Source: Promethearchaeota archaeon
GTDB lineage: Archaea > Asgardarchaeota > Lokiarchaeia > Sigyniarchaeales > SOKP01
NCBI GenBank assembly: GCA_048938855.1
Contig: JBHLLT010000005.1
Span: 64,001 to 128,000, forward strand
Length of the DNA: 64,000 bases
Reading direction: 5' to 3'
Made by a program: the position numbers and the translations under genes. The notes beneath the pieces are model-generated. The model searched no databases. It saw only the letters and a program-made list of their open reading frames with translations, and was not told where the DNA came from. Below, piece by piece: positions 8,996 to 18,676 of the stretch (positions within the stretch are counted from its first letter, which is position 1; each line of letters begins with the position of its first letter).

Positions 8996-10290
8996 CCATA
9001 ATTGAAGAGGAAAAAAAACATATGAGCGAAAATGTCATGATTTTAACTGGAAATCATGCTGCAGCCCATGCTTTTAGGCAAGCTAGAGTAGGTGTAGTAT
9101 CCGCTTATCCAATCACACCCCAAAGTCCTGTCGTTGAAAAAATTGCTGAATTTATATATGAAGGAAAATTAAAAGCTAGGTTCGTCAAGGTTGAATCTGA
9201 ACATTCAGCTTTAGCCGTATGTTGTGCTGCTTCCGCAACAGGATCTAGAGTTGGGACTGCAACATCTGCTCATGGTTTAGAATTAATGTATGAATTACTT
9301 CCATGGGCGGCAGGAAACAGACTACCTATCATCATTAATCTCGCAACAAGATCTCTTGGAGCGCCATGGTCAGTTTGGACAGACCATTCTGATTTTATTA
9401 CAATAAGAGATGTTGGCTGGATACAGTTTATGTGTGAAAATAATCAGGAGATCTACGATACAAATCTTCAAGCATTTAAAATTGCTGAAGATTCACGAGT
9501 TTTTCTGCCTGCGATAGTAGCATATGATGGATATATCCTAAGTCATACTATGATGCCAGTTAAATTAGAAAATCAAGATAGTATTGACAAATTTTTACCT
9601 CCTATAAACCACCACATTAATTTGTCTGATATTTCTCAAGTAAAAGGTATAGATCCCGTAACAACACCTCATATAGTTAAACGCGCTGAAGGAACTGCTC
9701 CTGGCTATTATGAATATCGATATGCTCTACAAAAATCGTTGGAAAATTCAATTGATATAATAAAGGAAGTTCATGATGAGTTTGCTGCCAAATTTGGAAG
9801 ATCTTATGGGAACGGGATATATAAAGAAGTTCAAACTGAAGATGCTGATACAATTATTTTTGCTATGGGATCAGTTGCATCTCAAGCGAGAGTTGCAATC
9901 AAAAAATTAAGAGCGGAAGGTTTAAAGATCGGGATCTTAAGTCTTAAGTTATTTAGACCCTTTCCACATGAAGAAATGAAAGAATTCTTCAAAGATAGAA
10001 AGAATATAATTGTTTTTGATAGGGATATTGGATATGGTTACGAGGGGGTGTTATCTTATGAATTAAAAGCTGCTCTTTATGGATTAAAAAACAGACCAAA
10101 TATTAAGGGTTTTATTGTAGGATTAGGGGGTAGAGATGTAAAAACTGAGCATATTATTGAAGGTGTTTATAAAGCTTTGGATGAATTTAACAAGGGAATA
10201 TCCACCAATAAAACTGATTTCTTAGGTCTGAGATTAGATGAATTGAAAGATTATGATGAATCAACATATTTTAAAAGTGGAGGATGTTAA
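8992..10290 (+). CDS. porA: Pyruvate/2-oxoacid:ferredoxin oxidoreductase alpha subunit
   Basis: GNHAAA, AYPITPQ, ESEHSA, TATSAHG, FRPFP, GLGGRD. Confidence 0.95.
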   Translation: MTIIEEEKKHMSENVMILTGNHAAAHAFRQARVGVVSAYPITPQSPVVEKIAEFIYEGKLKARFVKVESEHSALAVCCAASATGSRVGTATSAHGLELMYELLPWAAGNRLPIIINLATRSLGAPWSVWTDHSDFITIRDVGWIQFMCENNQEIYDTNLQAFKIAEDSRVFLPAIVAYDGYILSHTMMPVKLENQDSIDKFLPPINHHINLSDISQVKGIDPVTTPHIVKRAEGTAPGYYEYRYALQKSLENSIDIIKEVHDEFAAKFGRSYGNGIYKEVQTEDADTIIFAMGSVASQARVAIKKLRAEGLKIGILSLKLFRPFPHEEMKEFFKDRKNIIVFDRDIGYGYEGVLSYELKAALYGLKNRPNIKGFIVGLGGRDVKTEHIIEGVYKALDEFNKGISTNKTDFLGLRLDELKDYDESTYFKSGGC

Positions 10291-11192
10291 AAATGGTAAA
10301 TGTTATGGATCTTCCTGAAGAAGAATTTATATATCCTGGGACTCGTGCTTGTGCAGGATGTGGAATGGCATTGATCTACAGAATGGCTCTTAAAGCACTA
10401 GGGCCTAAGACAATAATAACCGTACCAGCATCATGCTTAACTGTATTGCATGGAATGCAAGGATTTTGCTCAACAAAAATATCTGTTTATCATACACCTT
10501 TTGCCACTACTGGTGCTTCAGCATCAGGGATCTTAGCATCTTTAGAAGATAAAGGTTTAGCAGATGAAATCACTGTTCTTGCTTTTGCCGGAGATGGTGG
10601 AACAACCGATATTGGAATACAGGCTTTAAGTGGAGCCGCAGAAAGAGGAACAAACTTTATTTATGCATGTTATGATAATGAAGCATATATGAATACAGGA
10701 GTTCAGAGAAGTGGTTCTACTCCTCTTGGTGTTCGAACTACAACTACTCCAGAAGGAAAGGAAGTTCATAAAAAAAATATGCCAAAAATATTAGAAGCAC
10801 ATGGCATCCCATATGTCACTACTGCTAATGCTGCTTACCCTCTTGATTTATATGAAAAATTTAAGAGAGCAAAAACCATAATTGGACCGAAATATTTCCA
10901 TATTTTATCACCTTGTCCCCCTGGATGGGGATATGATCCAAAAGATACGATGTTGATCGGCAGATTAGCAAATGAAACAGGTTTTTGGCCTCTTTATGAA
11001 GTTATTGAGGGTAAATTTGAATTATCAAGACCTAGCAATAGATATTTAGATTCCTCTAAACGTAAACCAATAAATGAGTATTTGAAAATGCAAAAAAGAT
11101 TTAAATCTATTGATGATGCCACAATTAAATTATATGAAGAATATATTTCTAAAATGTGGGATGATATAAAGCAAAGATTAGATAACCAGTAG
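10284..11192 (+). CDS. porB: Pyruvate/2-oxoacid:ferredoxin oxidoreductase beta subunit (TPP-binding)
   Basis: ACAGCG, GDGG..DIG, DNEAYMNTG.QRS, SPCP.GW. Confidence 0.95.
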   Translation: MLKMVNVMDLPEEEFIYPGTRACAGCGMALIYRMALKALGPKTIITVPASCLTVLHGMQGFCSTKISVYHTPFATTGASASGILASLEDKGLADEITVLAFAGDGGTTDIGIQALSGAAERGTNFIYACYDNEAYMNTGVQRSGSTPLGVRTTTTPEGKEVHKKNMPKILEAHGIPYVTTANAAYPLDLYEKFKRAKTIIGPKYFHILSPCPPGWGYDPKDTMLIGRLANETGFWPLYEVIEGKFELSRPSNRYLDSSKRKPINEYLKMQKRFKSIDDATIKLYEEYISKMWDDIKQRLDNQ

Positions 11193-11308: not shown

Positions 11309-12091
11309 ATGCTAAGAACATTCATATTTGATGAAACTAAATCTCATTGGATCGAAGAAGAGCAACATTTACTATCTCAAGATATTTGTGCAATTTTAGA
11401 TGAAGAAAATGTCATTTTATATCTTTGGAATGGCCCAAAAAGCAAAAAGAAGAAATTTAGGAAAGCATATAAACAACTAAAGCTATTGATTGCTAATTAT
11501 CGAGAGTTAAATATCCAGTTAATTATGTCTAAGAAGAACTTTCCTCTACAAATTCAAGACAAACTAAACTCATTTTTAGATTCTTTGAAATCAGGAGAAA
11601 AAATGAATTTAAAATTTAGTAGGTTTATAACTATAAGACTTTATAGCATTTCTATCATAATTGCAGTACTATTACCCATCATATCGTTTCTAAATTTAAG
11701 TACATCGTTTTTTTGGTCAAAATTTTTAGGAAATTATGAAGTAAATAGCATAAATTATACAAATTGGATAAATTTTTCAAAAATAATCACTTTAATTGCC
11801 TTAATATTTTTTAGTATCAACCTTGTAATTGGCATTGTTGAATATGAAAATCAAGTTATTGTATTTTCATTAAATAGCATAATTATTTCAATAGGAATCG
11901 TGTTTTACTTAAATCAAGGAGTTTTTCTTTTTTTGTTTCAAGAAGGCTCAACATCCACTACTTATTTTATATTACCGAAAGATGTTTTCATCTTCTTACT
12001 GTTGAATTTAACAGCTCTTCTGGTTTTTGAAATTCCTAATATATATAAATTATTATCTTTTTTCAAAACTTATCGAAAATTCATATTTTAG
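11309..12091 (+). CDS. Gelsolin-like domain fused to a ~4-TM membrane domain
   Basis: 'LLSQDICAILDEENVILYLWNGPKS...FRKA' fits the gelsolin repeat pattern L.S.D..ilD....iy.W.G..s; C-terminal half has four hydrophobic helices. Confidence 0.62.
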   Translation: MLRTFIFDETKSHWIEEEQHLLSQDICAILDEENVILYLWNGPKSKKKKFRKAYKQLKLLIANYRELNIQLIMSKKNFPLQIQDKLNSFLDSLKSGEKMNLKFSRFITIRLYSISIIIAVLLPIISFLNLSTSFFWSKFLGNYEVNSINYTNWINFSKIITLIALIFFSINLVIGIVEYENQVIVFSLNSIIISIGIVFYLNQGVFLFLFQEGSTSTTYFILPKDVFIFLLLNLTALLVFEIPNIYKLLSFFKTYRKFIF

Positions 12092-12102
12092 TTGATATAA
12101 GT

Positions 12103-12978
12103 GTGCAAGTAGCAAATCTACTTACTGAACTTGAAAAGGAAGATCTTCGAATCCTCATGGCGATTGAAATTGGGATGAAGAGGTCTAAGTTTGTTACCGT
12201 AAACAATATTAAATTCTATTCTCGTTACAAAATGGAAGAAACACTTTTCCGATTAAAAAAAGTTCATAAACTTGATTTAATTATCAGAGACGCTTCTAAG
12301 CATGAAATTGCCTATACGCTCAATTCTAAGGCTTATGATTTACTTGCACTACATGCTTTAGTCGAACAAAACATAATTAGCCAATTAGGGCCTCTTATAG
12401 GTAAAGGTAAAGAATCAGATGTGTATAGCTGCATGGATGATCACGAAAATATTTTCGCAGCGAAATTTTACCGAATGGGGAGAACAAGCTTTAAAAGTAT
12501 AAAACAACTTAGAGATATTATCGGAGAACGGGGACACCTTTCTTGGCTTTATGTGAATAGACTTGCTGCAAAAAAAGAGTATGAAGCTCTTGAAAAGATA
12601 TATCTACTTAAACTAAACACTCCAAAACCAATAGGTTATAATAGGCATATAATTATAATGTCTTACTTGAGAGGAAAAGAATTAGTTTACTATAAATATA
12701 TAAAAAAACCTTTAAAGATCTTTACTAGAATTATTAAGCAATACAAATTAATATATAAAAAAGCAGGTATGATACATGGAGATTTAGGTGAATTTAATAT
12801 TGTTTTGGATGAAAAAGGAAACATTTTATTAATTGATTGGTTACAATGGGTTCCAGCTGATCATCCTAATGCAAAATCACTTTTGGAAAGGGATATTGAA
12901 AATATATGTAATTATTTTCAAAAAAAGTATAATATCGAAAGTAAAACAGATGAGATTCTTAAATCTTTTTATAAATAA
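12103..12978 (+). CDS. rio2: RIO2 atypical Ser/Thr kinase
   Basis: N-terminal wHTH, GKGKES.V, KFYR.GRTSF, HGDL.EFNI, IDW. Confidence 0.93.
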   Translation: MQVANLLTELEKEDLRILMAIEIGMKRSKFVTVNNIKFYSRYKMEETLFRLKKVHKLDLIIRDASKHEIAYTLNSKAYDLLALHALVEQNIISQLGPLIGKGKESDVYSCMDDHENIFAAKFYRMGRTSFKSIKQLRDIIGERGHLSWLYVNRLAAKKEYEALEKIYLLKLNTPKPIGYNRHIIIMSYLRGKELVYYKYIKKPLKIFTRIIKQYKLIYKKAGMIHGDLGEFNIVLDEKGNILLIDWLQWVPADHPNAKSLLERDIENICNYFQKKYNIESKTDEILKSFYK

Positions 12979-13594
12979 TTGGTCTAAAAGTTTTTAGCTG
13001 AGAAATCTTACCCTGGATTATTATATCTTCTAACTTTTCTTTTTCTATTACGATTATGTCTTTCACGTAAAGTTCTAATATTTTTAGTAAAGAATTTAAA
13101 TCTAAGTTCTTTTTAAGGATAGAAAATATGAAGTCGGTATTATTTTTACATACTCTTGTTAATTCTTCAATTCCATTTCTAATACTTGGTAAATTTTGGA
13201 ATGATGTAAATGTAAATATCATATCGAATGTATTTTCTCTAAAAGGTAAATGATCAATATCTGATAATATAAAATTTGGTAGATGGCCAAAATTATCATC
13301 TTTGAAAGTTTTTGATTTAAATTTTAACAACATATTCCAGGAAATATCTACCGCAATATAATTACTGTTTGTAATATTCTTCGCAACATTTGTTTTTATT
13401 AAATACTCAAAAAATAAACCTGTACCACACCCCAAATCTAAAATTATTCTGTTGAAATCTCTATAATTATTTAAAATTACCTCATACTTCTCTTTTTGTA
13501 TCGCTTCATATCTTTTGTCATAAAAATTTGCTGTCTTATTATAATCGCTAATAATTTTCTTTTTCTTATTTTGATTTTTATGTTTATCCTCCAA
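12959..13594 (-). CDS. Class I SAM-dependent methyltransferase
   Basis: ILDLGCGTG, VDIS..ML, LPFR...FD motifs. Confidence 0.9.
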   Translation of the reverse strand: MEDKHKNQNKKKKIISDYNKTANFYDKRYEAIQKEKYEVILNNYRDFNRIILDLGCGTGLFFEYLIKTNVAKNITNSNYIAVDISWNMLLKFKSKTFKDDNFGHLPNFILSDIDHLPFRENTFDMIFTFTSFQNLPSIRNGIEELTRVCKNNTDFIFSILKKNLDLNSLLKILELYVKDIIVIEKEKLEDIIIQGKISQLKTFRPIIYKKI

Positions 13595-13718: not shown

Positions 13719-13982
13719 ATGTCAAGTAGAAATAATAATCAACAGAGATCAAAAAACCCTTTACAAATATTACAAAATAGCCAAGGTTCAATAATATTAC
13801 TCCGATTAAAAGATGGGACTGAATATAGAGGACTTTTAAAGGAAATAGATGCTTATATGAACATGATTCTTGAGGATGCTACTGAACTTTTAGATGGGAC
13901 ACCTATGGCCAAATATAACGAAATTTTCATTAGAGGTAATAATCTTCTATTTATAAAGCCTGATGCCTCTCAACTTACGTAG
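13719..13982 (+). CDS. Sm-like (Lsm/SmAP) RNA-binding protein
   Basis: Sm1 'EYRGLL..ID.YMN.IL' and Sm2 'IFIRGNN' motifs. Confidence 0.93.
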   Translation: MSSRNNNQQRSKNPLQILQNSQGSIILLRLKDGTEYRGLLKEIDAYMNMILEDATELLDGTPMAKYNEIFIRGNNLLFIKPDASQLT

Positions 13983-14063: not shown

Positions 14064-14963
14064 TTACAGCTCTAAGAGTTTTGGTATAACCTCATCATTT
14101 TTAATTATTGCATAAGATGCAGGATTAGGAGAATATTCACCTCTATAATTCGCAGATGAGAATATTGATAACAATCTATTGTTGAAGAACCACCGATATC
14201 CCTCAGGAAAACATTCATGGGCTCTTATAAGAAAATTTAGATTATTATATTTCATAAACTCCTTAAAAGCGTCGTTTCCAAAAAATTTTATACCTGGACC
14301 CCTAAAACTGTCGGAAAAACCTTGTAAATCTGACTTAGGGTCATTCCACATAATTTGATATATACTTTGTGCATTTGAGGTAAAGACTTGACTAAAATCT
14401 TTGCATTTATGGCCTTTAAGCTTACCTAGAATTTCAATATCTTGTGGGATTCCTCCATGTAAGCATAAAGTTGTCTCATTAACTAAAATACATAGAGGGA
14501 GAGTGTTATATACTTTAATAATATCAATAAACTTACTCTGATCTTTGAATCTTAGAAGAAAATCTTGAAAAAAACCATAATATTGATTTATTTCAAGAGT
14601 TTCATGATTTCCTCTTATGATATAATATTTTAAAGGGAATAGAATTTTTAACGCATATACTATAATTAAACATTCTAATTGCTTTGGACCACGATCAACA
14701 ATATCCCCAAGAAAAATTACTATTTTAGGATTATTTTTATTAATAATTTTAATTAATTCCATCAAGGTTTTTAAGTTTCCATGAATATCTCCTATAACGT
14801 AAATTACGTCTGTTTTACTGTTAACACTGAGTTCTAAAAGTAAATTTTCAACCTCAAATAATTCTTTCACGGTCTTTAATATTATTGATATAATATCAAA
14901 GTTTAATTTGGAAATTTTTTGAGGATTATTGATTAGATCAAGTAAAAATGAATTTTCTATCAA
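14064..14963 (-). CDS. PPP-family Ser/Thr protein phosphatase (PP1/PP2A-like)
   Basis: GDIHG, GDIVDRG, RGNHE, HGG, WNDP, RG.G, RAHE, FSSANY. Confidence 0.95.
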   Translation of the reverse strand: MIENSFLLDLINNPQKISKLNFDIISIILKTVKELFEVENLLLELSVNSKTDVIYVIGDIHGNLKTLMELIKIINKNNPKIVIFLGDIVDRGPKQLECLIIVYALKILFPLKYYIIRGNHETLEINQYYGFFQDFLLRFKDQSKFIDIIKVYNTLPLCILVNETTLCLHGGIPQDIEILGKLKGHKCKDFSQVFTSNAQSIYQIMWNDPKSDLQGFSDSFRGPGIKFFGNDAFKEFMKYNNLNFLIRAHECFPEGYRWFFNNRLLSIFSSANYRGEYSPNPASYAIIKNDEVIPKLLEL

Positions 14964-15086: not shown

Positions 15087-17174
15087 ATGCAAGCTCAAAA
15101 GCTTATAAAATTCATGGAAAATCAAATTCAGGACTTTGAAAATCAAAAAGCACTTCAGCAAAATAAAAATCGTAATCTTGGAATCATCTATACTCCAAAT
15201 GAAATTGTAGATTATATAGTTTCCAATATATTCAGAATCTTTTTCCGTGAATATTTTACTTCTCTAAAAATCAATCAGGTAGATGTCAATATAGAAAAAT
15301 TAGTTGATATTTTAGGTAGAAATCCAGAATTTAAAGTTAAGATATATAATATAATTAAAAATTTGAGAATTTTAGATCCCTCTTGTGGTTCTGGGAGATT
15401 TTTAATATCAATAGCAGAAAAATTATATAAAATTTATCAAGTAGTAAATCCTGGATTATCGCCTCTTGAACTTAAGAAATCAATTATTGAGAGAAACCTA
15501 TATGCAAATGAAATTGATCAATCCGCTATTGTTATTGCCAAGTTACGGCTAATTCAGTGGCTTTTATCTAATGATCCTAATAATATTACCTACTATATTC
15601 CCAACTTTAAGAGTTTCAAAGCTACAAATATTAATCATTTCATTGAAATATTAAATCTCAAATTTAATATTTACAACTTAGATTTCCTCTTAGAATTTGA
15701 CTCTGATAAATTCGATATTATTGTTGGGAATCCACCATATGTCGAAAACAAGCGGATAAAGGATAAAGAATTTAAAAAAAAACTGATAAATAGATATCAA
15801 TCGGCATATCGATTATTCGATCTTTCAATCATATTCATCGAGAGATCTTTAGAGTTATTAAATATTGGAGGATATCTCTCACTAATTTTACCAAATAAAT
15901 TTCTATCTGCAGATTATGGTATTAAAATCAGATCGTTATTGCTAAATGAATCAGAAATCAAAGAAATCATAAATATCTCATCGTTATCTGTGTTTCAAAA
16001 TGCAGCTACATACCCTATAATATTATCTTCGAAAAAAACTAATCAAATCAAAAAGAAAGAAATTGTTATTAAATCATACAAGAAAATAAGTGAATTAGTT
16101 AATAATGCCAAAAATATGACATTATATCTTAACCAGAGTCAAATTGACTATCTACCTTCAAAAGTAATTCCTCTCTCAGATAATATAAATTTATTAACAT
16201 TTTTATTTAAAAACTTTGAAGCTTTTGATGAAACCTTTAAAGATTTGAAAATCATTTATCGACCATTTGGTTTTTTAAAATATGGTAGACATTATGATAA
16301 CATCAGTAATAAACCTCAGTCTGATAATGATTTATTATTAATTGGAACTAGTAATGTAGGAAAGTTTCATATTAAATTCGATAAAAGAATAAAAATTATG
16401 GGGAACGATCTTGAAATATCATACTTTAATTATAATTCTAACTTTGAGCATATCTGGAATGATCTCAATAGTGAAAAACTTATTTTTAGAGAAATCGCGA
16501 AAGATTTAACATTTTTTTATGATCCTGGAGTATTTACTAATATAACTGGTCTCTATTTTATTAAAATTCCCTCATTAAATACTGATCAGTTATTTGGTCT
16601 TTTAACAATATTAAATTCTGAATTTATGAACTCGGTGTTTAAATCACTATTTAGTACATTACATATGGCAGGGGGTTATTTAAGATTTAATGGCAGCTTT
16701 ATTAAAAGATTACCCATGCCAAGAATATTTCCTATGTTTTTATCACAATTGGGGAAAATTCTACAATTTCTTTCCCAATTAAATTATAGTTTCAACTCAT
16801 CTAATTTTAAATATGCAAGAAATAATGAATTAGAGCAATTTAAGGATAAATATAATAACAAAATTAATGTTTCTCTTACTTTTTTCAATAAACTTAGTAA
16901 TTCTCTAGTCAAATTATTATTCCTTGATGAATTTTACTTAAAAAATAATATAGATTATAACATTCTAAGAGATTTATTGGACTTAAGAGGAGATTTTCAA
17001 AAAATACCAGCAAAATTTTTAATTCCGGTCTTCCATTTAAAAAATTATAAAGTTTTCTCCTTTAATGAATTAGATTGTATTTTGACTGAAATTGTCAAAT
17101 TTTGTAGAAGACTACAGTGCAATAAAGAATTATTAAAACAAGTAGATAACCTATTAAAAACTAATTTCAGTTAA
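15087..17174 (+). CDS. Solitary N6-adenine DNA methyltransferase, gamma class (Eco57I/TaqI-like)
   Basis: GIIYTP, LDPSCGSGRF, IVGNPPY, LPNKFL..DYG..IR, C-terminal target-recognition domain; no nuclease domain seen. Confidence 0.88.
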   Translation: MQAQKLIKFMENQIQDFENQKALQQNKNRNLGIIYTPNEIVDYIVSNIFRIFFREYFTSLKINQVDVNIEKLVDILGRNPEFKVKIYNIIKNLRILDPSCGSGRFLISIAEKLYKIYQVVNPGLSPLELKKSIIERNLYANEIDQSAIVIAKLRLIQWLLSNDPNNITYYIPNFKSFKATNINHFIEILNLKFNIYNLDFLLEFDSDKFDIIVGNPPYVENKRIKDKEFKKKLINRYQSAYRLFDLSIIFIERSLELLNIGGYLSLILPNKFLSADYGIKIRSLLLNESEIKEIINISSLSVFQNAATYPIILSSKKTNQIKKKEIVIKSYKKISELVNNAKNMTLYLNQSQIDYLPSKVIPLSDNINLLTFLFKNFEAFDETFKDLKIIYRPFGFLKYGRHYDNISNKPQSDNDLLLIGTSNVGKFHIKFDKRIKIMGNDLEISYFNYNSNFEHIWNDLNSEKLIFREIAKDLTFFYDPGVFTNITGLYFIKIPSLNTDQLFGLLTILNSEFMNSVFKSLFSTLHMAGGYLRFNGSFIKRLPMPRIFPMFLSQLGKILQFLSQLNYSFNSSNFKYARNNELEQFKDKYNNKINVSLTFFNKLSNSLVKLLFLDEFYLKNNIDYNILRDLLDLRGDFQKIPAKFLIPVFHLKNYKVFSFNELDCILTEIVKFCRRLQCNKELLKQVDNLLKTNFS

Positions 17175-17677: not shown

Positions 17678-18676
17678 TTGCTTTCAAATATATTAAAACG
17701 CTTAATATTGATAATTATTGATATTCTAATAAGCTGGTATATTTGGGAAGTGAATGTTTCATTCGGAAATCCCTGTTACACGTCAGCTTTTTCAAAATGT
17801 TTTACTTTATCGGTTACAACATTTCTAATTATTTATGTGCCTTTTGAGATTTACTGGTCCTTTAGAGACCTCTGGTTTGATCGCTGGAGAAAAATTATTC
17901 TCAAGGATCTAAATGTTTCAAATAAACAAATTAAAGTCTCTGATGGGTCTCTATATGCAAGCATAGTCACAAATCAGGATAAAAACAAAATTAACCTAAA
18001 AAATTCTATTATTATTGTTTGTCATGGTTTTTCTGATACAAAAGAGACACTTCAATATTTATATTTCCCATTCGCTTATCAAGGTTATGTGGTTTTAGCA
18101 TATGATGCGAGAGGTACAGGAAAATCAAAAAAAACGGGAAAAAGAAGTGATTTTTTAAAAAGAATTGAAGATTTTTGCAAAATAATTGAATGGGTAAGAA
18201 CACAAGAAGAATACGCAACTAAAAAAATTTATTGTATTGGATTTAGCATAGGAGCAATAACAGTTCTATCTGCAACTTCTGTTATTAGAGATATTGACAA
18301 AATAATTGCAATCTCATCAATGTCTTCTTACAAACAAAATATCCCTAAATATAATCCAGTAATCATATTAGACTATTTAATTAAGGGTGTAAAATTGTTT
18401 CCAAGTAGTGAAGAAAATATCCAGTTATCTCCATTTCAATCAATAAAAAAAATGAAAGACGAGTTAAGTTTAGAGGAATGGAAAATCTTCTCTAAAAAGA
18501 TTATGTTAATACATTGTAGAAATGATAGAATTATAAAATTTAAAAATTTAAAAGAAAATAGGTTGATATTAGAATCCCCTGATAAAAATGTTCTTATATT
18601 AAAGAAAGGAGGGCATTCACAGAAGAAAAATGAATGTATATTAGTTGGAGCTTGTCTTAATTTCTTTAAATCATGA
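17678..18676 (+). CDS. Membrane-anchored alpha/beta hydrolase
   Basis: Two N-terminal hydrophobic segments; HGF, YDARGTG, GFSIG, D..GGH. Confidence 0.85.
   Translation: MLSNILKRLILIIIDILISWYIWEVNVSFGNPCYTSAFSKCFTLSVTTFLIIYVPFEIYWSFRDLWFDRWRKIILKDLNVSNKQIKVSDGSLYASIVTNQDKNKINLKNSIIIVCHGFSDTKETLQYLYFPFAYQGYVVLAYDARGTGKSKKTGKRSDFLKRIEDFCKIIEWVRTQEEYATKKIYCIGFSIGAITVLSATSVIRDIDKIIAISSMSSYKQNIPKYNPVIILDYLIKGVKLFPSSEENIQLSPFQSIKKMKDELSLEEWKIFSKKIMLIHCRNDRIIKFKNLKENRLILESPDKNVLILKKGGHSQKKNECILVGACLNFFKS

Follow-up and report, generated by a model that had tools for sequence, protein, structure and literature searches.

Genes at the locus

The window, by which we mean the whole 64,000-nucleotide stretch analysed here (contig JBHLLT010000005.1 of the Promethearchaeota archaeon assembly GCA_048938855.1), contains an intact open reading frame that starts with ATG and encodes a product of 260 aa, in which an N-terminal gelsolin-homology (GH) head is joined to a membrane domain of four helices (Table 1). 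The gene, GH-4TM, lies between porB (10284-11192) and rio2, and its stop codon is followed after 11 bp by the GTG start codon of rio2; an earlier sequence-only reading of this DNA had both the coordinates and the spacing right. The rio2 product comprises the RIO1 and Rio2_N domains of Pfam. We detected 202 homologues of the GH-4TM protein at E values up to 0.001, nearly all of them ~260 aa long; those with names are annotated as hypothetical proteins of Asgard archaea. Together with 69 representatives whose full-length identity goes down to ~20%, they show that the reading frame is a real gene. A scan for promoters and terminators by a method not suited to archaea gave results at chance level.

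Table 1. Features of GH-4TM and of related loci. Plain numbers are window positions; residues are those of the 260-aa product.
Feature	Position	Strand	Evidence or remark
Whole gene: GH head and four-helix membrane domain, 260 aa	11309..12091	+	intact ORF, homologues
GH domain, residues 1-94: five strands, long helix, short C-terminal helix, D25-W40-G42 'DWG'	11309..11590	+	Foldseek, VIA, profile
Long helix with basic N-terminal patch, residues 44-63	11438..11497	+	actin-cleft helix of gelsolins/cofilins; charged at 51/52
Linker 95-105, basic, ending in conserved R105, predicted cytoplasmic	11591..11623	+	pLDDT <50 at 95-99
Helix 106-135 with TM1	11624..11713	+	model, hydropathy
Outer loop 1: beta-hairpin 137-146 after conserved W136	11714..11746	+	model, conservation
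Helix 147-178 with TM2 (~159-177)	11747..11842	+	model, hydropathy
Helix 181-202, TM3, conserved G196 and Y200	11849..11914	+	model, hydropathy, conservation
Outer loop 2, residues 203-222: L207, F208, F210, Y219, I221 conserved	11915..11974	+	alignment
Helix 223-259: TM4 (~226-243) and basic cytoplasmic tail	11975..12088	+	model, hydropathy
rio2 kinase gene	12103..12978	+	downstream; neighbour in home family only, not in B35/MK-D1
Second paralogue class	L106-L130, e.g. L037:6039-6830 (G147)	+	
Soluble GH gene beside GH-4TM, 422 aa	L034:8361-9629 (G279)	+	
Soluble GH gene beside GH-4TM, 799 aa	L047:1243-3642 (G282)		
Other GH ORFs of this genome	G000 contigs C44, C47, C72, C32, C6, C71, C34, C90, C74		

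The order porB, GH-4TM, rio2 is found in 29 of the 30 top loci, all from the family of this genome (the home family), whose loci share a long syntenic block of por genes, rio2 and the genes of a methyltransferase, an Lsm protein and a phosphatase. Outside the home family the arrangement dissolves: in Lokiarchaeum ossiferum B35 and Promethearchaeum syntrophicum MK-D1, GH-4TM is flanked upstream by TFIIB and downstream by a DNA methyltransferase, in the genome G135 it has other neighbours, and the adjacency to rio2 is broken in G150 and G147 too. Since the gene sits between TFIIB and the DNA methyltransferase in B35 and MK-D1, its adjacency to rio2 is single-family synteny and uninformative on function.

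Several other genes of the region were recorded. The methyltransferase gene near rio2 (12959-13594, minus strand) belongs to the block conserved across the home family, as do the Lsm gene (13719-13982, plus strand) and a gene for a calcineurin-like phosphoesterase resembling PPP Ser/Thr phosphatases (14064-14963, minus strand). Farther along, the window holds genes for an Eco57I-type DNA methyltransferase (15087-17174, plus strand) and an alpha/beta hydrolase (17678-18676, plus strand); both keep close to GH-4TM even in B35 and MK-D1, where they follow directly 3' of it, an unusual synteny for the methyltransferase. A Lokiactin gene lies on the same contig ~51 kb from GH-4TM, outside the window (L051:1495-2640, minus strand; G000 C79:23378-24490), and two actin-related genes occur elsewhere in this genome.

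The N-terminal head has a gelsolin fold

The gelsolin repeat pattern that the sequence-only reading had recognised is present as S23-x-D25, L30-D31, Y38-L-W40-N-G42, S45 and R51-K-A53. The query sequence on its own has zero matches in Pfam or PDB. The comparison with PF00626 which that reading had proposed gives a divided result: 26 of 57 family members match this model weakly, below its curated cut-off (best E 3.3e-4), and the query itself does not. A profile of the 57 close relatives ranks the structure of the Thorarchaeota protein ProGel (PDB 7C2F) first with an E value of 4.6e-4, followed by villin and gelsolin, and a deeper profile of 47 rows recovers ProGel at 4.2e-6 and the multi-repeat villins and gelsolins at 1e-10 to 1e-8.

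The AlphaFold2 model of the full-length protein (mean pLDDT 86.5, pTM 0.62) has gelsolin topology, with head strands at residues 2-8, 13-16, 26-31, 36-41 and 70-73 and helices at 47-63 and 80-94. A Foldseek search with this model returns 7c2f_B first (E 6.2e-5), nearly all of the top 50 rows belong to the gelsolin superfamily, and VIA-align superimposes the model on 7C2F with a Z score of 10.6 and an rmsd of 2.6 over 84 aligned residues of 20% identity. Among the 47 distant family members D25 and G42 are both found in 100% and W40 in 83%, being otherwise Y or F. By profile and by predicted structure, residues 1-94 are a gelsolin-homology domain, a kind that as a rule regulates actin, and the fold expected of this part of the protein is thus borne out. 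The ESM Atlas yields matches only to the family's own unnamed cluster, and weak matches to RbcX and RVT_3 were discarded as reflecting helix composition.

Conserved residues of the head are W14, E16, H24, D25, P79 and Q83, a conservation that may be merely structural. Three of them, E16, H24 and D25 (window positions 11354-11383), are kept in 94, 83 and 100% of the distant members and could form a metal or ligand site distinct from the calcium sites of gelsolin.

The membrane domain and its topology

Averages over 19 residues on the Kyte-Doolittle scale show four hydrophobic peaks of 2.0-2.8, centred near residues 116-122, 168, 192 and 230-235, and the four peaks appear in the query and in the family average, in agreement with the four transmembrane helices counted earlier. 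The bias of Lys and Arg corresponds to an N-in/C-in orientation in 57 of 57 close and 47 of 47 distant sequences, with a mean excess of ~5. This charge bias, uniform over 104 of 104 aligned rows, supports a cytoplasmic location of both termini and hence of the GH head; the extracellular head that had been named as a possible objection is not what is predicted.

Folded alone, the membrane domain is modelled with a pLDDT of 97.3 as four long helices; on the outer side lie a beta-hairpin that follows W136 and a short strand formed by residues 218-221. The head and the bundle have no fixed predicted orientation relative to one another, because residues 95-99 of the linker are poorly predicted. The outer loop between TM3 and TM4 is the best-conserved part of the membrane domain, which as a whole reaches a mean identity of 0.33 versus 0.35 for the head. 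The transmembrane segments are nearly devoid of conserved polar or charged residues.

Searches with the membrane domain alone gave no significant match in Pfam, among PDB sequences or in Foldseek, and VIA returned generic four-helix bundles. The domain resembles claudin and TARP tetraspans in having four transmembrane helices, both termini inside and small outer beta elements between TM1 and TM2 and between TM3 and TM4. An AMPA-receptor auxiliary chain is aligned to it at a Foldseek E value of 0.23 (VIA Z 9.7, rmsd 3.2, 131 residues aligned, 4% identity) and ranks below designed and soluble four-helix bundles; Claudin_3 is matched by one of 46 members (E 0.031), and no claudin chain is among the top VIA rows. 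Longer fused forms of the membrane domain were not found, which is weak evidence.

The long helix lacks the ProGel motif and the calcium signatures

The long helix of the head corresponds to the helix that gelsolins and cofilins insert into the actin cleft. Its positions were numbered without gaps from W40, and the register is fixed by G/A53, L60 and N63-Y64-P65. A shift by one residue, which would lay K-K-F of the query onto R-M-K-F, was rejected: these anchor residues match Thor ProGel only when unshifted. In 30 soluble ProGel-type domains from the same Loki order the helix carries R48 (100%), M49 (97%), K50 (97%) and F51 (100%), with a large hydrophobic residue at position 52 in 100%; Thor ProGel carries L51-M52. 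From these 30 loci and 7C2F we define the motif R48-x-K50-hydrophobic51-hydrophobic52. From its pattern and the twinfilin-actin structure we infer that its positions correspond to the actin-contact positions of twinfilin.

This motif is absent from the query, which reads K48-K49-F50-R51-K52. Positions 51 and 52 are charged in 95% and 93% of the 57 close members, and in the 47 distant members a large hydrophobic residue is found at 51 in 9% and at 52 in 28%. The polybasic patch noticed in the sequence-only reading does exist, but it is part of the long helix (residues 44-59, net charge +9) and does not follow the domain. It is clade-specific and not conserved across the order, where the net charge of the long helix runs from -4 to +9 (B35 -1, MK-D1 +2, query +9). 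Within the head, column conservation is lowest in this helix (0.35 versus 0.39-0.57), whereas Lokiactin sequences from across the order share 88-92% identity.

The calcium residues of gelsolin G1 we take to be Glu49 (type II) and Asp61 (type I), position 49 matching the 2DGel of this genome. The query has Lys49 and Ile61 and thus lacks both signatures. Its close relatives have K (58%) or R (30%) at position 49 and I or V at 61; Glu49 appears in 15% of the distant members and in the B35 and MK-D1 orthologues, and neither a conserved Glu49 nor a conserved Asp61 was found in the family alignment. The head is a single GH domain running straight into TM1, and neither a second GH domain nor a WH2-like linker was found in the 260-aa protein. 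In a tree of 61 GH domains, built from a short alignment with few columns and containing several long branches, a 98/98 branch sets the membrane-fused domains apart from 20 canonical soluble ones. With a cleft-helix face and calcium signatures that are both lacking and not constant in the family, the sequence evidence leans against canonical actin binding by the head.

Distribution and expression of the family

A survey of Asgard genomes for this architecture, one of the checks proposed earlier, finds the family, mostly in single copy, in one Loki order, where 101 of 116 well-assembled genomes carry it. A profile of the membrane domain matches 93 of the 106 home-family genomes, among them the present one, and eight of nine genomes of the family that holds the cultured strains; with the full-length profile, matches extend to the order's two smaller families. 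Outside the order the membrane-domain profile matched none of 152 Asgard genomes with a completeness of at least 85%. Exact look-ups identified the orthologues of the cultured species as UYP46179.1 (NEF87_002464) in L. ossiferum B35 and QEE14692.1 (DSAG12_00505) in P. syntrophicum MK-D1, both labelled 'hypothetical'.

A second class of paralogues, likewise with a GH head and four transmembrane helices and ~263 aa long, is present in 25 home-family genomes; the query used for it gave no match in the present genome. Its helix pattern A47-R48-x-R/K50-x-x-A53-R/K54 is almost invariant (R48 100%, R/K50 92%, A53 and R/K54 100%), and the pair R48 and R/K50 resembles R267/R269 of twinfilin, the basic pair of cofilin and twinfilin. 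By its sequence this class would be a better candidate for actin binding than the family of ORF 11309-12091, and since it keeps R48 and R/K50, the ancestor may have bound actin.

The published B35 proteomics table carries other identifiers (bioRxiv 10.1101/2025.11.30.690169). In this table GNAMCCOK_02486, at 54.82 kDa, has the exact monoisotopic mass of the aminopeptidase UYP46182, which is encoded three genes from the orthologue, and no tRNA lies between the two genes. This mass match and the three-gene offset map the orthologue to GNAMCCOK_02483. That entry was quantified in 16 of 16 published B35 proteomes with a mean log2 value of 15.91; Lokiactin is ~55-fold more abundant, and the soluble gelsolins exceed the entry 7- to 15-fold. 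By this inferred identifier mapping, the GH-4TM protein is shown to be made in B35. Five soluble gelsolins are enriched in the Lokiactin co-immunoprecipitation (co-IP) of the same study (bioRxiv 10.1101/2025.11.30.690169), and the orthologue is absent from the rows covered here, which run from the most enriched protein down to a log2 ratio of -1.06. The absence is weak evidence, because the authors state that the procedure under-represents membrane proteins.

Comparison with known gelsolin-fold proteins

The combination of a GH head with a four-helix membrane anchor places a known domain in a new architecture. Our literature search found no description of a transmembrane gelsolin, and the accession numbers of the B35 and MK-D1 proteins occur in no paper found. 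The family may already be labelled as a gelsolin in one database: the asCOG cog.006527 'Gelsolin domain', a B35/MK-D1 orthogroup listed beside TFIIB and profilin rows in Table S2 of PMC9834061, may be the GH-4TM family.

The closest solved relative, Thorarchaeota ProGel (chain B of 7C2F; Akil et al. 2020, PMC7444086), is likewise a single GH domain of ~90 aa with the DWG motif, without calcium sites and with N-Y/F-P at the end of the helix. It differs in being soluble and in having L51-M52 (F-I in Loki ProGels) where the query has R51-K52, and the query family is fused to four transmembrane helices and forms a separate subfamily. Other Asgard proteins, namely 1DGelX, 2DGel and B35_Gel1/Gel2 (PMC7444086, PMC9433394, bioRxiv 10.1101/2025.11.30.690169), share with it an N-terminal GH domain with a C-terminal extension and occur in the same organisms, but they are soluble, their extensions being coiled-coil, disordered, a second GH domain or zinc domains, and calcium sites of types I and II occur in the 2DGels together with a WH2-like motif. 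Five soluble Asgard gelsolins co-precipitate with Lokiactin, unlike the B35 member of the query family, which shows no apparent enrichment.

Among eukaryotic proteins, the best per-domain profile matches are G3-type repeats, and the G2-G3 repeats of gelsolin, villin and adseverin share the charged helix face; these repeats, however, belong to calcium-gated proteins of three or six domains, none of which is membrane-integral. Sec23 and Sec24 offer a functional analogy in which the GH fold is reused in a membrane-associated complex, but they are peripheral coat proteins, and neither is among the sequence or structure matches listed.

Possible functions of the membrane-bound gelsolin fold

As to how Lokiactin is coupled to the membrane of Asgard cells that crawl and form protrusions, every regulator named by the published co-IP is soluble. 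The family described here is a conserved, expressed and unannotated membrane protein with a predicted cytoplasmic gelsolin fold, and because it is present in both cultured Loki species, its relation to actin is directly testable. We lean, tentatively, towards an integral plasma-membrane protein with a calcium-independent, degenerate GH docking head that is not a classical actin-cleft binder. The four-helix bundle would fix the protein in the membrane, the outer aromatic cap would contact a partner or another copy of the same protein, and the head would recruit a cytoplasmic partner through its conserved residues W14, E16, H24, D25, P79 and Q83; in the query's clade, the basic long helix may lean on anionic lipid head groups. 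A link to the actin cortex would then be indirect, through the partner, or electrostatic only, and the head would act in the way of the Sec23 GH domain, which is not known to bind actin, or of a regulatory repeat of gelsolin, rather than like gelsolin G1 or ProGel. Consistent with this are helix positions 51 and 52, which are charged or variable here and invariant in soluble Loki ProGels, the poor conservation and shifting charge of a helix whose supposed partner Lokiactin hardly changes, the lack of a conserved Glu49 or Asp61, the separation of the membrane-fused domains in the tree, the co-IP, and the precedent of Sec23a, for whose GH domain no actin binding has been shown. On the other side, the conserved residues may only be structural, even a comparison of gelsolin with ADF-H domains shows poor conservation of the helix contacts, a basic helix serves gelsolin G2 in binding to the sides of filaments, and the co-IP is biased against membrane proteins, this one being in addition far scarcer than Lokiactin. 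All Asgard GH proteins tested so far act on actin, and as ProGel does so with a Kd of 337 uM, even very weak binding counts.

A direct, low-affinity tether between actin and the membrane, the idea put forward in the sequence-only reading, is a possibility that comes close behind the docking head, because ProGel bundles filaments in spite of its weak binding, G2 binds through a basic helix and membrane confinement would add avidity. The head would bind the sides of Lokiactin filaments in the manner of ProGel or G2, with neither calcium control nor severing, and hold them at the cortex or in protrusions. The closest solved fold is a ProGel crystallised on actin, the head is predicted to be cytoplasmic and on a flexible linker, in L. 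ossiferum actin filaments are situated at the cell periphery, B35 makes the protein, and the paralogue class of 25 genomes keeps its twinfilin-like basic pair. Against the tether stand the charged and variable positions facing the cleft, the missing enrichment with Lokiactin and the restriction to one order. Since all lineages are reported to have Lokiactin and dynamic protrusions are seen in a Hodarchaeales strain as well, an order-restricted protein cannot be a general anchor. That we are dealing with the first integral-membrane gelsolin-family protein to bind actin directly, a single-chain anchor of the Lokiactin cortex whose outer cap couples it to contacts outside, we regard as doubtful. 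It is unlikely that the protein belongs, as one of the subunits, to a receptor, channel or transport complex of the membrane, with the bundle and its beta-cap as the working part, acting as a tetraspan auxiliary subunit or as an oligomer, and the head as a regulator: the membrane domain equals the head in conservation, its bundle is confidently modelled and its outer aromatic motif exceeds the needs of a plain anchor, but pore-lining polar or charged residues are almost missing from the conserved positions, genes for transporters or receptors do not recur constantly beside it, and structure searches return generic bundles only. A calcium-regulated severing or capping gelsolin at the membrane would fit the DWG motif, the invariant D25 and the Glu49 of the two cultured species; it is made very improbable by the query's Lys49 and Ile61, by the rarity of Glu49 in distant members and its absence among the common residues of close ones, and by a single GH domain without a WH2-like motif. 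Least credible is a membrane factor acting with Rio2 in ribosome maturation. The common strand, the short spacing and the recurrence of rio2 downstream would favour it, but the 29 loci represent one family with a long syntenic block, and the breaks of synteny in B35, MK-D1, G135, G150 and G147 largely refute it.

If the protein binds actin, it would be a primitive anchor of the cortex. If it does not, Asgard archaea had already reused the gelsolin fold in a non-actin membrane role, comparable to that of eukaryotic Sec23/24. In either case the restriction to one order limits the bearing of the family on the eukaryotic ancestor.

Other GH-domain genes

MK-D1 encodes a further paralogue with a GH domain and four transmembrane helices (235 aa; L036:5860-6567, minus strand), the helix of which retains the hydrophobic pair M51-M52. 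In another Asgard family (G058), a 378-aa reading frame (L045:1826-2962, minus strand) joins a truncated class-A head to a protein with many transmembrane segments; lying on a short contig, this fusion is probably mis-binned or mis-assembled. In one small family a soluble GH-domain gene is found 1.3-1.5 kb from GH-4TM, and of all soluble domains in the tree those encoded by these genes come closest to the membrane group. This genome has about eleven other GH-domain reading frames, of which none has a transmembrane segment; they include a 97-aa ProGel (C44:2610-2903) and a 2DGel (C34:284710-285735).
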